A stretch of DNA of 64,000 nt from an uncultured Rivularia sp. (GTDB lineage: Bacteria; Cyanobacteriota; Cyanobacteriia; Cyanobacteriales; Nostocaceae), in assembly GCA_963665115.1 (NCBI GenBank), contig OY762007.1:3168001-3232000 (forward strand), given 5' to 3'. Made by a program: the position numbers and the translations under genes. Positions 26,971 to 32,508 of the stretch are shown here, one piece after another; within the stretch, counting starts at the first letter, position 1, and each line of letters starts with the position of its first letter. Below the pieces are notes generated by a model, which did no database searches, was not told the origin of the DNA, and saw only the letters and a program-made list of their open reading frames with translations.

Positions 26971-27016
26971 TAAGAGTTAGGAATTGATAGTTGAAGGATT
27001 TCACAACTAACAACTA

Positions 27017-27508
27017 TCAACTAACTACCAACAATTCCCTATTATGCCGATAGCAATTTCGCATTTTCTGTAATATTTCTTCATCAAAGGTAAATTTAAT
27101 TAGTTTAATTAGTTTGCCCCATTCATAGAGAGCTTCTTTACCAATACTTTGATTAAATTGAATGGCATAAAACCGCGCCCACCACTTGGGTGCTTGCTTC
27201 CTATTAACAAAATCATGTTTCTTCAACCAGCGTCTGCACCATTTAGCCATTTCTGAAGCGGAAGGTGGCGCAACTCCTATTACTGGCGGGAAATCGGCGT
27301 AGCTGACAAATTTGCTCAAACCCTTGCCGTGGACATAGACGACATATTGCCAGCATTCGACTACATAAATATCTTCAAATTTGATTTTAAATTTCAAACA
27401 AACTGCTTCTTCTGTAACGAATCGCGCTAATGGGTGAATTTCTGAGGACTTATAAGAAATTTTTGATTCCCTGATGACAAGCTTTCTTGCTTTGAGCGAT
27501 GTTAACAT
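27017..27508 (-). CDS. hypothetical protein
   Basis: 163-aa ORF, ECWQYVVYVHGKGLSKFVSYADFPP; AGGA about 10 nt upstream. Confidence 0.7.
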   Translation of the reverse strand: MLTSLKARKLVIRESKISYKSSEIHPLARFVTEEAVCLKFKIKFEDIYVVECWQYVVYVHGKGLSKFVSYADFPPVIGVAPPSASEMAKWCRRWLKKHDFVNRKQAPKWWARFYAIQFNQSIGKEALYEWGKLIKLIKFTFDEEILQKMRNCYRHNRELLVVS

Positions 27509-27510
27509 GG

Positions 27511-27600
27511 TAGATGAATCCTGTAAGCGATAGTAGATGAATCCTGTAAGCAGTAATAGATGAATCCTGTAAGCAGTAATAGATGAAATCTTCTAGTAAG
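27511..27600. repeat. 23-bp tandem repeat (3 copies plus 1 degenerate)
   Basis: TAGATGAATCCTGTAAGC(GATAG/AGTAA) at 27511, 27534, 27557; partial at 27580. Confidence 0.9.
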
Positions 27601-27797
27601 TTGTAAATGATGCATTCATTTAACAGATAAACCCTATTGCTAGTAGGAGGATTCTGTGAATGTACGATTTACATTGTTTTCGGGATTTCGATATTTTGAC
27701 TATGATTGCCCTTCATTTGTTATGCTGAAGGGTAATCATTTATTTTTTCTAGAATAAAAAAATTATCTGACTAAGCGAAGTCATTTGTCAAGAGGCT

Positions 27798-28010
27798 ATG
27801 GGAATAATTAGGTTAAAAGTTCGAGAGCTTGCTGCTGAAAAAGGGTGGACAATAAAGGAGGTTTCTGACCGCTCTGGAGTTGTTTATAGTACTCTTAGAA
27901 CCTATGCCCGTTCGCCTGGAATGACGATGGTTGACTTTACTGCTATTCAAAAGCTAGCTCGTGCGTTCGACGTGATGATAGAAGAATTGGTTGAAGTAGT
28001 AGAAGAGTAA
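27798..28010 (+). CDS. XRE/Cro-type HTH regulator, copy 1 (intact)
   Basis: LAAEKGWTIKEVSDRSGVVYSTL..IQKLARAFDVMIEEL. Confidence 0.88.
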   Translation: MGIIRLKVRELAAEKGWTIKEVSDRSGVVYSTLRTYARSPGMTMVDFTAIQKLARAFDVMIEELVEVVEE

Positions 28011-28195
28011 GCTTTTTAATTAATTTTTTACAATAAAAGACTCAATGGCCTCATGGGGCTTGTAAGATTAAGGATTAGGGAATTTATCAACGAGAAAGGT
28101 TGGACGCTCAAAGAAGTCTCCGAACGTTCTGGAGTTGTTTATAGTACTCTGAGAACCTATGCCCGTTCGCCTGGAATGACGATGGTTGACTTTAC

Positions 28196-29685
28196 CATCA
28201 ACCGCGAGAAGGCTCACACCGAATTCTTTGAATCGGTGTTGAGATGAATCGCGGGCAGAGTTTTAACAGATAACGAGTCAATCCATTCTTCTACAATTGC
28301 CGTCATTGTTTTATCTCTATCTAAAGCATAAGCTCTAAGAATATTTAATCTTTTTTCGCTAATTCTTAAATTTAGTGCTTTGTTTTTCATGATAATCTAC
28401 ACAATAACTACACATATATGTTAATATATCAATAGGTCGATAGCAAGAGGGATTTATTAATGAGAATTTCTTATCAATACCGATTAAAGCCGAATAAAGA
28501 GCAACGAGAAATTATTGATAACACACTCGATATGTTGCGTTGTCAATATAATTATCAGCTTGCACAGCGGTTTGATTGGTACGAACAGAATCGCTGTTCT
28601 ATTGATAGATGCCCTCTTGTTTGTCATCTTCCAGAATTAAAAAATAAACCGAACAAAGTAAGCCAAGAAAAAAGTTTAGTTCAACTAAAAAAAGATAGAC
28701 CTTGGTACAAAAAAATTCATAGCCAGGTACTTCAAGCTGTATCTGACAAAGTAGAAAAAACTTTTGATAGATGGCTCAAAGGTGATAGTAACGGTAAGCG
28801 TTCTGGTCGTCCAAGATTTAAAGGTGTAGGACGTTATAAAACATTTACATATAAACAATTCAAACAGCATCCTAAAGTTGGTAATAAAATTACGCTATCA
28901 AAAATTGGTGAGTTAAAAGTAATTGTACACCGACCTATCCCAGATGGTTTCGTTATCAAAACCCTATCTGTAACGAAAAAAGCTAGCGGTTACTATGTAA
29001 CTTTAAGTCTTGATAACAAAGAAGTCCCAACAATTAAACCAGATTTCAATGCTGATAATATTGTAGGTATTGATGTTGGGCTGATTGATTTTTATGTAGC
29101 TTCTGATAATACCCGAATTGCTGCACCAAAACATTTACGAAAAGCACAACGTAAATTATCCGCAGCACAACGTAAAGTATCGCGGCGGCATATTGGCTCA
29201 AATCGTCGCAAAAAAGCAATTAAAAAGTTAGGTATTAGACATAAAAAGGTAGCTGATACCCGAAAAGATTTTCACTTTAAAACAGCTAAAAAACTACTAG
29301 ACAAATACGATGTCGTAGTAGTTGAAAAGCTGAATATCAAAGGACTTGTTAAAACAAGATTAGCTAAATCAATTAATGATGCTGGTTGGGGTCAATTCAT
29401 TTGTATACTGACAAACAAAGCCGAAAATGCTGGTTTGAAAGTTATTGCTGTGAATCCCAACGGTACAAGTCAATCTTGTTCTAGTTGTGGTCATATTGTC
29501 AAAAAGCCGCTGTCTCAAAGAATGCATAATTGCCCAGTGTGCAAAACCACCATCTGCCGGGACTTGAACGCAGCGCGGAACATCAAGGTGCGTGGGGACG
29601 CACGCCCTAAAAGCTCAGTTTATGTCGTCAAAGACGAGTCGCTGAGAAGCTCACACCTACTCGAAGAGAGGTGTGAGTACGTCAC
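28196..29685 (+). mobile_element. IS200/IS605-family (IS1341-type, TnpA-less) element
   Basis: Inserted 3' of TTTAC without TSD; ends in TCAC; related subterminal hairpins CTCACACC..GGTGT(T)GAG at both ends; precise removal restores the host ORF. Confidence 0.9.
28214..28390 (-). CDS. 58-aa ribbon-helix-helix-like protein (not in ORF track)
   Basis: MKNKALNLRISEKRLNILRAYALDRDKTMTAIVEEWIDSLSVKTLPAIHLNTDSKNSV; divergent from tnpB. Confidence 0.7.
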   Translation of the reverse strand: MKNKALNLRISEKRLNILRAYALDRDKTMTAIVEEWIDSLSVKTLPAIHLNTDSKNSV

Positions 29686-29755
29686 GTCCATTCAGAAGCT
29701 AGCTCGTGCGTTCGACGTGATGATTGAAGAGTTAGTCGAAGTTGTTGAAGAGTAA
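28460..29755 (+). CDS. tnpB: RNA-guided endonuclease TnpB reading through the right end into the host gene
   Basis: GIDVGL, VVEKL, CRDLNAARNI, CSSC..CPVC. Confidence 0.92.
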   Translation: MRISYQYRLKPNKEQREIIDNTLDMLRCQYNYQLAQRFDWYEQNRCSIDRCPLVCHLPELKNKPNKVSQEKSLVQLKKDRPWYKKIHSQVLQAVSDKVEKTFDRWLKGDSNGKRSGRPRFKGVGRYKTFTYKQFKQHPKVGNKITLSKIGELKVIVHRPIPDGFVIKTLSVTKKASGYYVTLSLDNKEVPTIKPDFNADNIVGIDVGLIDFYVASDNTRIAAPKHLRKAQRKLSAAQRKVSRRHIGSNRRKKAIKKLGIRHKKVADTRKDFHFKTAKKLLDKYDVVVVEKLNIKGLVKTRLAKSINDAGWGQFICILTNKAENAGLKVIAVNPNGTSQSCSSCGHIVKKPLSQRMHNCPVCKTTICRDLNAARNIKVRGDARPKSSVYVVKDESLRSSHLLEERCEYVTSIQKLARAFDVMIEELVEVVEE

Positions 29756-29871
29756 CTAATTAAAAAGGCGATACTTGGGCATGAGTTTCGCTTAACGCCA
29801 ATGCAGCAGATTATAAACTATAAGAATAATTATGCTAAAAATATAGGACTTCGCAAGTAAAAAAATTGCTC

Positions 29872-29960
29872 TCCTGATTGGCAATTATTGAGTTTACTGC
29901 CATTAGACATGAAGCTCGTGCATTCAATGTGATGATTGAAAACTAGTTGAAATAATTGAA
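29872..29960 (+). pseudogene. degenerate third XRE-HTH remnant
   Basis: GAGTTTACTGCCATT..GCTCGTGCATTCAATGTGATGATTGAA matches the 3' half of copies 1 and 2. Confidence 0.6.
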
Positions 29961-30330
29961 TGCTTAAAAATTATTAACATAAGAACATTCAATTCAGTTT
30001 TTGCTTTAATTACAAAAAATAAAAAAAGAATGCGAGTATAAAAATATAAAATTCTATTTTCAATTCTATCGAGTTAGGGTTGTTAACCGCCCGAAACCTA
30101 TATCTACACTAAATTTAAAGCAATTAACCACTAACCACTAACCACTAACAAATATATCTTCTGACTGTATAACCACGGATGGTTACAAAACTAGCGGTCA
30201 GATATTTCAGGAATAATGCGGACGCACTGTCCCGAAATATCATGGTACTTTACACATTAGCGTTCCTCTGCTAAAGAGGGCGGTTTAAGCCCGCCTTCTT
30301 AGCATTTTTCTTAGTTTAACTCAGAAATTT

Positions 30331-32508
30331 CTAAACATCCTCCCCATCTCCAATATCTCGCTTCGGTGGACGTTTGTAGGTAAAGGTAAAAGTATCGCCA
30401 CTAGTAATTACTCGCCGCATTTCATCATACATCGGATAATTCCCTACACCGCTAAGACTTGCCCAACCACGCGCTCTAGTTAAAGCAACAAACAATTGGT
30501 TACGATGATTCATATCATTCTCGTTACGAGCGACTTTATCAAAGCCAACTACATAAACCATATCGGCTTCATGTCCTTTAGCACGGTTGATACGAGACAC
30601 TGTAACGCCATTGTCATGCCAGAATTTATCGGGGTCATTATTGGGATATTCTGGATACAAATCGTTTAATATTTGAGCAGTAGGAATGTAAACGTCAATA
30701 TTTTGGTCAATTAAAAAATCAGCAGCTTCTCGTTCTAGCTCTATCGCTTCAGAGTTAGAGCCTAAAACAACTACTAAAATATCGCGACTGGGATTAAGAC
30801 CATCATTAACAATATTGTGCATGATGTTCTCGGACAAAGCCGTTAATTCTTCCTCACGAGAATTATAGGTTTTAAATTCGAGTACGGGTTCTCCCCAAAG
30901 TTCGGGTATTGGGTTGGGAGAAAATTGTGGCGATCGCACTATAGTAATTGGCTTACCAACTTTGCGAAAATCGCCTTGGACTTCGTATCCAATTCTGTCC
31001 CAATCCTTTTTGTTGGTAATACCGGAAAGCATTCCCTCACCACGTAGCAAACCCATACCAATAGCGTGGGCTGCGGTGAGAATTGGTCCCGGAGTCCGGT
31101 AACAGTGGCGCATCACTTCCGAACGTTTGATACCACCGGGGTATTGTGGCTGTTTGTTGAGAAGATTGCTTAATTTTTCACCAAATACTTCTTTAGCTTT
31201 GGGTACGACTAAACTATCAAGACTTTGTGCTTCATCGTAAGCCCAGATTAAACGCTTTTCTTCAGGTGTTTCTTCGCTTGCAGGTCGTAAAGCTTGATAA
31301 GCTAACCAGTAAATTGCTTGTTTGTCTTGATATTTCAAATTCTCATCAGCAACCAAATCTTGACCTTCATCAATCAAGATAGCGTCAAACATCGGTTCAA
31401 CTGTAATCTCTTCCTGCAACCGCTTGCATAACTCAGCTAAACCTCGATTTGGTTGTCCTTGGTTAGTATCTACAACCGTTCCGCGTCTTTTGCCGTGGTA
31501 TTCGCAAATTGTTCCATATAAGCCGGGTTGCTCTTTCGCACCCCAAGCATGAAGCACGCGCAATTTTAAATTAGTTTTGGGGTCATAATGTAAATCTCCA
31601 CCGCTAAAACGACGCATCCACTGGTCTAATAAACCAATCATTAAGTCATATAAAGAGCGAGTGAAAAACACTAAAGCAATATCCCAATCGGGATGCTTCA
31701 AATGCATATGCGCCGCTTTCTGACACAGCAATACAGTTTTACCAGAACCAGCAATACCGCGAATACGTTGAGGTCCGGGGGGAATTTCTTTACCAATATG
31801 TTCTTGCTGTAAATCGATTTCATATAGCTTTTGACGCAAAGCATCCATGACGCTAGCGCGGGTTTTACCACTAACAGCAATATCGCGCTGAGGTTTGCGA
31901 AGTACGGGAGTTCCACCAATTACCGAGAGTAGTAATTCCCAATCTTTATCCTCTAAATTTTCTCCTGGAACTAGAGGAGACGTTTGTTGAATGCGTTCGA
32001 GTAAAGCAGCTTTAGTTAACTGGTCCTGAAAAATGATTGTCGGACAGTTAGGTAGTTGGTCGAAACCTCTTTGCTGCCATTGTTCTTGAGTAATTAAAGG
32101 TAGTGCAACAATAGTTCTACCGTTGACTTTACGCCAAATAGCCGGTTCTCGGTCAGTATATGCAATTAAAGCGCGTAATTGATGTTCTGCTAATTGAGAT
32201 GGAGATGCTTCTGCTGTTCGGAAGTTTCGTAAAAGCCAATTTTTATCGTTGATTTCAGTTATTTGATCGATAGTAACTGGCAAAATTTCAATAACAGTTA
32301 AACCGAATTCTCTATCAACAACAAGGATATCGGGTTCCTTACGAATTTCACCTACCTTCGAGAAAATCGGATACCGCCAATACCCGATACAGTTTCTATC
32401 TGCAAACGCATTTTTTACAGCGTCCCATGCTTGTTGTTCGGTTGATTCCGTTCCGGATTTTATCGCTTCAGTAGTGATAAATTTATTATTAGTATCTTCA
32501 AAAGTCAT
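30331..32508 (-). CDS. NERD-like domain plus superfamily I (UvrD-like) helicase
   Basis: EPDILVVD..VIEI; GIAGSGKT, LIDEGQD, YDEAQ, YRT, AKGHE, FVALTRAR. Confidence 0.85.
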   Translation of the reverse strand: MTFEDTNNKFITTEAIKSGTESTEQQAWDAVKNAFADRNCIGYWRYPIFSKVGEIRKEPDILVVDREFGLTVIEILPVTIDQITEINDKNWLLRNFRTAEASPSQLAEHQLRALIAYTDREPAIWRKVNGRTIVALPLITQEQWQQRGFDQLPNCPTIIFQDQLTKAALLERIQQTSPLVPGENLEDKDWELLLSVIGGTPVLRKPQRDIAVSGKTRASVMDALRQKLYEIDLQQEHIGKEIPPGPQRIRGIAGSGKTVLLCQKAAHMHLKHPDWDIALVFFTRSLYDLMIGLLDQWMRRFSGGDLHYDPKTNLKLRVLHAWGAKEQPGLYGTICEYHGKRRGTVVDTNQGQPNRGLAELCKRLQEEITVEPMFDAILIDEGQDLVADENLKYQDKQAIYWLAYQALRPASEETPEEKRLIWAYDEAQSLDSLVVPKAKEVFGEKLSNLLNKQPQYPGGIKRSEVMRHCYRTPGPILTAAHAIGMGLLRGEGMLSGITNKKDWDRIGYEVQGDFRKVGKPITIVRSPQFSPNPIPELWGEPVLEFKTYNSREEELTALSENIMHNIVNDGLNPSRDILVVVLGSNSEAIELEREAADFLIDQNIDVYIPTAQILNDLYPEYPNNDPDKFWHDNGVTVSRINRAKGHEADMVYVVGFDKVARNENDMNHRNQLFVALTRARGWASLSGVGNYPMYDEMRRVITSGDTFTFTYKRPPKRDIGDGEDV

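Follow-up and report, generated by a model that had tools for sequence, protein, structure and literature searches.

The window analysed here is a stretch of 64,000 nucleotides (nt) from an uncultured Rivularia sp. (GenBank assembly GCA_963665115.1, contig OY762007.1, positions 3,168,001 to 3,232,000). It carries a tandem array of genes for XRE-family helix-turn-helix (HTH) proteins, the second of which is split by an IS200/IS605-family insertion sequence (IS) with a tnpB gene. In the middle of the split gene (copy 2) the sequence is nearly that of its intact neighbour (copy 1) on both sides of the insertion, save for ten bases directly to the right of the element. It is proposed that copy 1 overwrote the middle of copy 2 by ectopic gene conversion and that the ten differing bases are older copy-2 sequence that was spared; a probability of about three in four is given to this reading. 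The same ten bases form the start of the predicted guide of the RNA-guided nuclease TnpB, and nothing indicates that the mismatches to copy 1 arose or were kept for blocking TnpB.

A copy-1-like tract within copy 2

Rejoining of the two copy-2 flanks (28053-28195 and 29686-29755) gave an open frame of 70 codons with zero duplicated bases. In an ungapped alignment this frame differed from copy 1 at 41 of 213 nt, and the mismatches were unevenly distributed: 30 fell within gene positions 1-75, one (T/G at 27896/28151) within the next 68 nt, which end in the TTTAC that precedes the element, four within the following ten bases (positions 1, 2, 4 and 10), none within the next 29 nt, and six, every one at a third codon position, within the last 31 nt. 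The original prediction, which was made from the letters alone, had given the same figures (67/68, 4/10, 29/29, with diverged ends). Mismatch positions were shuffled 200,000 times and scored for runs of 68 nt or more that contain no more than one mismatch, which gave P = 2e-5 for all sites and P = 3.4e-4 for third codon positions alone (29 of 71 differing). The clustering of identity between the two copies is not due to chance.

Short tandem paralogues are prone to mis-polishing, and an assembly or polishing artefact that copied one paralogue onto the other was therefore considered. It is rated as very remote, because the tract structure was reproduced by short-read unitigs from three runs (X1-X3; one study, possibly of the source sample, so that they may be the assembly's own data). 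Both copies were recovered: a 271-nt unitig spanned 27911-28181 with 0 differences, a 44-nt unitig with roughly double the depth of its neighbours spanned 27897-27940, and one of 55 nt crossed the left junction (28166-28220).

For comparison, 42 XRE copies were collected from this genome (G000) and 24 relatives of the genus, with a start codon and an ungapped identity of 58 % or more as the requirements; some pseudogenes are among them. Three sequence types recur in this sample. Over gene positions 1-75, copy 2 is of the B-type, with eight to ten mismatches to B- and C-type copies versus 30 to its own A-type copy 1. From position 76 to 143 it is copy-1-like, its nearest relatives being its own copy 1 and the first copy of G026 (one mismatch each); over positions 154-182 the nearest sequence is its own copy 1, and over positions 183-213 it is the third copy of G018, both with 0 mismatches. 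When its own copy 1 and G018 copy 3 were taken as parents A and B, respectively, with n for a state found in neither, the 47 informative sites of copy 2 read 12 B, n, 9 B, 6 A, n, 5 A, n, B, 5 A and 6 B; the longest A run was 11 (P = 2e-5). Of the 213 nt of copy 1, two differ from its counterpart in G026, a relative free of the IS, and the two genes are identical through the whole tract. Because copy 1 is thus unchanged relative to an IS-free orthologue, it was assigned as the donor and copy 2 as the recipient.

Seventeen within-genome paralogue pairs were then compared. They do not include the pair of G003, where the second copy has a frameshift, nor any third or fourth copy that is a fragment. 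A significant tract was found in the G000 pair alone (0/20,000 shuffles); G021 followed with 0.049 and the others gave at least 0.11, and the tract is absent at a significance of 0.01 from all 16 other pairs, which come from IS-free relatives. The tract is likely to be an ectopic gene conversion of copy 1 into copy 2 and, judged from these comparisons, a recent one. The original prediction had offered a gene-conversion scar as one explanation of the shared tract, and the shuffles, the mosaic and the restriction to one of 17 pairs all speak for it. Selection on the nucleotide sequence itself, by way of an embedded RNA or a binding site and with no recombination at all, would be in keeping with a protein that is highly conserved across the family in this part of the gene. 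The same codons have, however, diverged freely at synonymous sites in the 16 other pairs, which contradicts such selection, and Rfam gave nothing at E <= 1 across 27000-30400; this explanation is hardly credible.

The array as a whole is recombinogenic in its history. Across the genus its size varies from one to four copies, and the XRE copies are mosaics; the third copy, a fragment in the window, is full-length yet frameshifted in G026 (L009, 2059-2275). Over 27700-28010, copy 1 and about 100 nt upstream of it are 97-100 % identical between G000 and G026 (L009), with 73-92 % in the surrounding DNA, which suggests that the copy-1 allele may have been exchanged recently between the two lineages. 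Since the array exchanges sequence readily within and between genomes, an ordinary recombinational origin of the tract is the economical reading. Ectopic gene conversion is known between bacterial paralogues, tandem or dispersed, for example between tufA and tufB in Salmonella. The case described here resembles it in the short tract of near identity within synonymously saturated genes, in the mosaicism and in a direction that can be read from orthologues, and differs in that 10 nt next to the 1.5-kb insertion in the recipient stayed unconverted.

The patch itself was traced to IS-free genes. The copy-1 form of the ten bases, TGCTATTCAA, is shared by the first copies of G026, G008, G010 and G018. 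The exact copy-2 form, GTCCATTCAG, was met in the metagenome contig L119, whose single XRE copy is uninterrupted and reads ...GACTTCAC GTCCATTCAG...; where the left tract has its sole mismatch, this gene, too, carries the G. G009 and L087 have a related form, GTCTATTCAA. The XRE genes of L119, L087 and G009 have the same neighbours as the array in the window. The patch encodes Thr-Ser-Ile-Gln, with Ser at that codon also in G009, L087, G011 and G020, and its position 10 is the B-type G. Its presence in an IS-free syntenic gene means that the four differences are an inherited allele and not escape mutations. A degenerate pattern, GAYTTYACGTCNATTCARAA, was found at 23 loci in genome contigs and 30 in metagenome contigs; two of these 53 loci (L087, L119) are XRE homologues, and none has TTTAC plus the full copy-2 context. 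An arrival of the patch together with the element from a previous insertion site was rejected, as the other genomic copy of the element is followed by CAAATATACC and the patch encodes family-typical residues in frame.

The inserted element and its surroundings

On sequence grounds, the insertion is an IS200/IS605-family element with tnpB only (IS1341-like organisation), inserted 3' of TTTAC without target duplication. A second copy of it in the genome (L002, G000:C1:1917042-1918530) shows homology from the base after TTTAC through ...GTACGTCAC and none past it; the element ends are exact because this copy shares everything between them and nothing beyond. Just two differences separate the copies, T/G at 28913 and one G in the run 29594-29597. 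Among seven relatives with an alignable left end, the element is preceded by TTTAC five times and by TTTAA and TTTGC once each. Relatives conserve the hairpins of both ends, and the stem of the right one shows compensatory changes. The target TTTAC lies in a conserved Asp-Phe-Thr codon string (GAC TTT AC) and is the only TTTAC in the XRE gene. Coordinates are collected in Table 1.

Table 1. Features of the XRE array and the inserted element (positions in the window; gene positions are counted from the start codon).
Feature	Position	Strand	Basis and remarks
XRE-family HTH copy 1, A-type, 70 aa, intact	27798-28010	+	Open reading frame; Pfam HTH_26 5.9e-08, HTH_3 4.2e-06
Copy-1 side of the 68-nt tract	27873-27940	+	67/68 identical to 28128-28195 (gene positions 76-143); ends in TTTAC, 27936-27940
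Copy-1 10-mer TGCTATTCAA	27941-27950	+	Differs from copy-2 GTCCATTCAG (29686-29695) at positions 1, 2, 4, 10
Copy-1 side of the 29-nt tract	27951-27979	+	29/29 identical to 29696-29724 (+11 to +39 past TTTAC)
XRE copy 2, 5' part (codons 1-47 and two bases of codon 48)	28053-28195	+	Gene positions 1-75 B-type, 76-143 copy-1-like; ends in TTTAC, 28191-28195
IS200/IS605-family element, tnpB without tnpA, 1,490 bp	28196-29685	+	Ends ...GTACGTCAC; set by second copy L002 and relatives
Element hairpins	left end ~28212-28243; right end ~29649-29678		
58-aa open reading frame in the element, divergent from tnpB	28214-28390	-	Predicted ribbon-helix-helix (CopG-like)
tnpB open reading frame, 431 aa	28460-29755	+	Read-through beyond the element takes in the final 23 codons of XRE copy 2
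Predicted omegaRNA scaffold, structured 3' region	29583-29685	+	Covariation; overlaps the right-end hairpin; 5' limit provisional
Predicted guide/target 20-mer GTCCATTCAGAAGCTAGCTC	29686-29705	+	From family mechanism and right-end boundary; first 10 nt are the unconverted patch
XRE copy 2, 3' part	29686-29755	+	29696-29724 copy-1-like; 29725-29755 B-type, identical to G018 copy 3
Third XRE fragment, degenerate, C-terminal half only	29871-29950	+	Read and aligned; keeps TTTAC, then TGCCATTAGA

The TnpB product matched HTH_OrfB_IS605 (PF12323), OrfB_IS605 (PF01385) and Cas12f1-like_TNB (PF07282) above the Pfam cut-offs and the NCBIfam model guided_TnpB (NF040570) with 300 bits. Together with the ends of the second copy and the TTTAC in five of seven relatives, these matches bear out the original assignment of an IS605-type TnpB element at TTTAC. 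Structures of ISDra2 TnpB aligned to residues 5-376 (E 2.6e-37). In the alignment to the top structural match, an AI-designed nuclease, GIDVG, VEKLN and RDLNAA stand opposite GVDLG, VEDLN and RDENAA; we take the three motifs of the window TnpB to be the catalytic D/E/D. With the additional G at 29594-29597, the reading frame changes after ...NIKVRG, and a 53-residue read-through into the XRE C-terminus takes the place of the normal 16-residue tail. A normal TnpB of 394 aa is kept in the second copy, and relatives keep the family tail; the extra G, which sits in the loop of a conserved hairpin, was seen in one of the 20 aligned relatives, namely the window copy alone. As the extra G is unique to this copy, the in-frame fusion of TnpB to the XRE C-terminus was taken as a coincidence.

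By tblastn, the 58-aa reading frame is conserved in most related IS loci (23 of 32), with an amino acid identity of 52-100 % even where the DNA is just about 70 % identical. Its leading ESM Atlas match was a "putative CopG family regulator" (score 0.96); no match was found in Pfam, NCBIfam or PADLOC. It may be an element-encoded regulator of tnpB.

No tnpA was found inside 28196-29685 in the list of open reading frames or by Pfam, and the Y1 transposase domain (PF01797) gave ten matches elsewhere in the genome, nine of them over the cut-off; we infer that the window element is non-autonomous and mobilised in trans. At G000:C1:759214-760945 (L004/L066), a tnpA (152 bits to PF01797) lies divergent beside a tnpB with 77 % identical DNA and the same right-end terminus, GGTACGTCAC; the left end of this element was not found with the left-end pattern used. 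It is a candidate for an autonomous relative that could mobilise the window element.

Contigs of runs X1, X2, X3 and X5 contained no joint that skips the element over 27600-30000, although contigs drop rare variants and none covered 29706-30000. In a search for other XRE::IS junctions among 301 genomes of the family, 183 of which gave an XRE protein match, the junction pattern GTNGAYTTTACCNTCAAYCG was exact in G000 alone and occurred with one mismatch in 25 genomes; ten of these 25 loci were fetched, and none had XRE or element homology.

For the 3' region of the predicted omegaRNA, RNAalifold was applied to 20 of the 22 available relatives and predicted 45 pairs, of which 16 show compensatory changes; the single-sequence fold had z = -2.08. 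This covarying structure overlaps the DNA hairpin that TnpA would use, and it matched no Rfam family. The guide reportedly measures 16-20 nt in ISDra2, and that of the window element would be the first 16-20 nt of its right flank. Use of the right flank as guide, which the original prediction had put forward and which is likewise predicted here, agrees with the mechanism of the family: according to one report, IS200/IS605 TnpB takes the right flank as its guide and cuts joints of the transposon-adjacent motif (TAM) with the right flank, after which repair copies the element back (bioRxiv 10.1101/2023.03.14.532601).

The ISGst elements and ISDra2, as described in the same report, resemble the window element in a TnpB with HTH, RuvC and Zn-ribbon parts, in subterminal hairpins, in insertion 3' of a T-rich pentanucleotide without duplication and in a structured 3' end that abuts the right flank. 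A tnpA is also at hand in the window genome, in one instance beside a tnpB of 77 % DNA identity. The window element differs from them in that it lacks tnpA and has a conserved ribbon-helix-helix-like reading frame where tnpA usually sits; the tail of its TnpB is frameshifted, and its guide use, TAM preference and activity are deduced.

Further features were noted around the array. A 23-nt tandem repeat, TAGATGAATCCTGTAAGCAGTAA (3.3 copies, 94 % matches), occupies 27511-27587 between the XRE array and a divergent 163-aa open reading frame (27017-27508); this stretch is just 62-65 % identical to G026, and operator sites may lie there. A perfect heptamer repeat, TAACCAC x3.6, is found at 30125-30149. 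The neighbouring gene at 30331-32508 (minus strand, 725 aa) encodes a UvrD-like helicase that matched the PADLOC models "Helicase" (PDLC03002, 1.3e-82) and "NERD+UvrD" (9.4e-14); it may be a candidate defence gene adjoining the array.

Copy 1 as a possible target of TnpB

In copy 1, TTTAC is followed by a 20-mer with four mismatches to the predicted guide, at positions 1, 2, 4 and 10, which the original prediction had described as a near-cognate self-target protected by its seed mismatches. Among 39,700 genomic TTTAC sites, copy 1 is indeed the closest to the guide over 20 nt. Four unrelated TTTAC/TTTAA sites match the guide equally well over 16 nt, and over guide positions 1-12 the four mismatches of copy 1 compare with two to three at those sites. 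As it is no closer than chance sites over the first 12 positions, copy 1 is probably not a special near-cognate target; the motif and the 4-mismatch 20-mer stand, and a special status is unlikely. In a study on Ymu1 TnpB, mismatches in positions 1-4 abolish unwinding, and single ones at 4, 7 or 10 severely inhibit cleavage (bioRxiv 10.64898/2026.01.09.698545); another study indicates that single mismatches can be tolerated beside a strong TAM (PMC11043419). By analogy, the four mismatches would be expected to block binding and cutting of copy 1 by TnpB. Residual binding of TnpB to the paralogue, which had also been envisaged, is unlikely from such data on other TnpBs.

The same patch invites a selective explanation, in which convertants that made copy 1 equal to the guide were cut and lost, or had the element copied into copy 1, so that the patch would be a footprint of self-targeting avoidance. 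The unconverted patch corresponds to guide positions 1-10, copy 1 carries the TAM, and the tract was seen in the insertion-bearing array only. In addition, the RuvC motifs align with ISDra2-type TnpB, an unshifted 394-aa copy is present in the genome, as are Y1 transposase genes (ten matches, nine over cut-off), and the TnpB of such elements cuts joined TAM and right flank, with repair restoring the element, by the report on the family (bioRxiv 10.1101/2023.03.14.532601). Against this, the 10-mer pre-exists in an IS-free syntenic gene and leaves no new mutation to explain, a patch beside a 1.5-kb heterology is expected without a nuclease, homing into copy 1 need not kill, and expression and activity of TnpB and omegaRNA are predictions. 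A single patch in a single genome cannot show selection, and this explanation is considered quite improbable. A reading of the four differences as escape from self-cleavage, or as a shield against it, is not supported, given GTCCATTCAG in IS-free L119 and GTCTATTCAA in G009 and L087. Two observations in IS-free relatives had been named in advance as telling against it: the same four differences were found, in L119, and the same identity tract was not, being absent from the 16 other pairs.

Self-targeting CRISPR spacers can be tolerated by way of mismatches in the protospacer-adjacent motif or the seed. The present case is similar in that a guide has a partly matching genomic site beside the correct motif. 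It differs in that the mismatch states pre-exist in IS-free relatives and that the site is no closer than chance over 12 positions.

Order of events and significance

In the proposed conversion, copy 1 would have donated positions 76-143 and 154-182 to its tandem paralogue, and the patch would have been spared beside the 1.5-kb heterology of an insertion already in place. Such heterology would limit heteroduplex formation and mismatch correction nearby, and the adjacent markers would stay with the insertion-bearing strand. On the left, A-like sequence gives way to non-A-like sequence between gene positions 138 and 144, at most 6 nt from the junction, and on the right the change falls at 10-13 nt; the closeness on the left fits an insertion that bounded the tract. 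This version, with the insertion first, is preferred, tentatively and at somewhat short of even odds. Alternatively, a patchy conversion may have come first and the element may then have landed at the only TTTAC of the gene, an order of events regarded as a lesser possibility. In the conversion reading, the predicted omegaRNA guide would simply be the inherited right flank.

Several points weigh against the conversion reading as formulated here. The tract occurs in the insertion-bearing array alone (one of 17 pairs) and is roughly centred on the insertion site, which leaves room for a causal link with the element, on a single case. No strain of this species without the IS was found that would show which came first, insertion or conversion. 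Three of the four distinguishing patch states (positions 1, 2 and 4) are missing from the sampled B-type orthologues, so that the assignment of the patch to older copy-2 sequence rests on the L119 and G009 alleles. In L119, in turn, the 10-mer follows TTCAC instead of TTTAC, and 3 of 78 sites over positions 76-153 are unlike those of copy 2; the contig shows that the allele exists, not that it was the direct ancestor of copy 2.

The cut of TnpB enzymes is reported to fall 15-21 nt inside the right flank. A break at that place, or one left by TnpA excision, might have been repaired from the adjacent paralogue, in which case the element itself would have caused the homogenisation. The tract (positions 76-182) does bracket the insertion point (143/144), its right part (+11 to +39) covers the reported position of the TnpB cut, it is the only significant tract among the 17 pairs, and the near identity of the two element copies implies recent activity. 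However, repair from copy 1 across the junction should remove the element rather than keep it, and the right-end motif GTCAC differs from TTTAC, so that self-cutting of the occupied site is not expected. The X1-X3 unitigs contain no empty-site joint, though contigs drop rare variants, and there is one case only. Break-induced conversion is therefore judged improbable. Taken more broadly, a part of the RNA-guided nuclease in shaping the homogenisation of the paralogues, be it by element-linked breaks or by the elimination or invasion of matching convertants, is given little credence. A role of the nuclease in the conversion is unsupported: the case is a single one, and the observations can be explained without it.

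The preferred reading, conversion of the middle of copy 2 by copy 1, makes the case an instance of two known, ordinary processes that met in one gene, namely IS200/IS605 tnpB insertion and conversion between tandem genes. A full-text search on TnpB with paralogue gene conversion, judged by titles and the openings of abstracts of the papers listed, found no report of an effect of TnpB on such conversion. If the nuclease reading were true, the first 10 nt of the guide, as an unconverted island, would be a trace that TnpB self-targeting had left, in nature, in the evolution of a host gene family, and a nuclease that constrains or triggers the conversion of paralogues would imply a cost or effect of TnpB elements for the host genome. 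Irrespective of this, the exact element ends, the TAM and the predicted guide of a Nostocales-type TnpB could be useful for TnpB mining.

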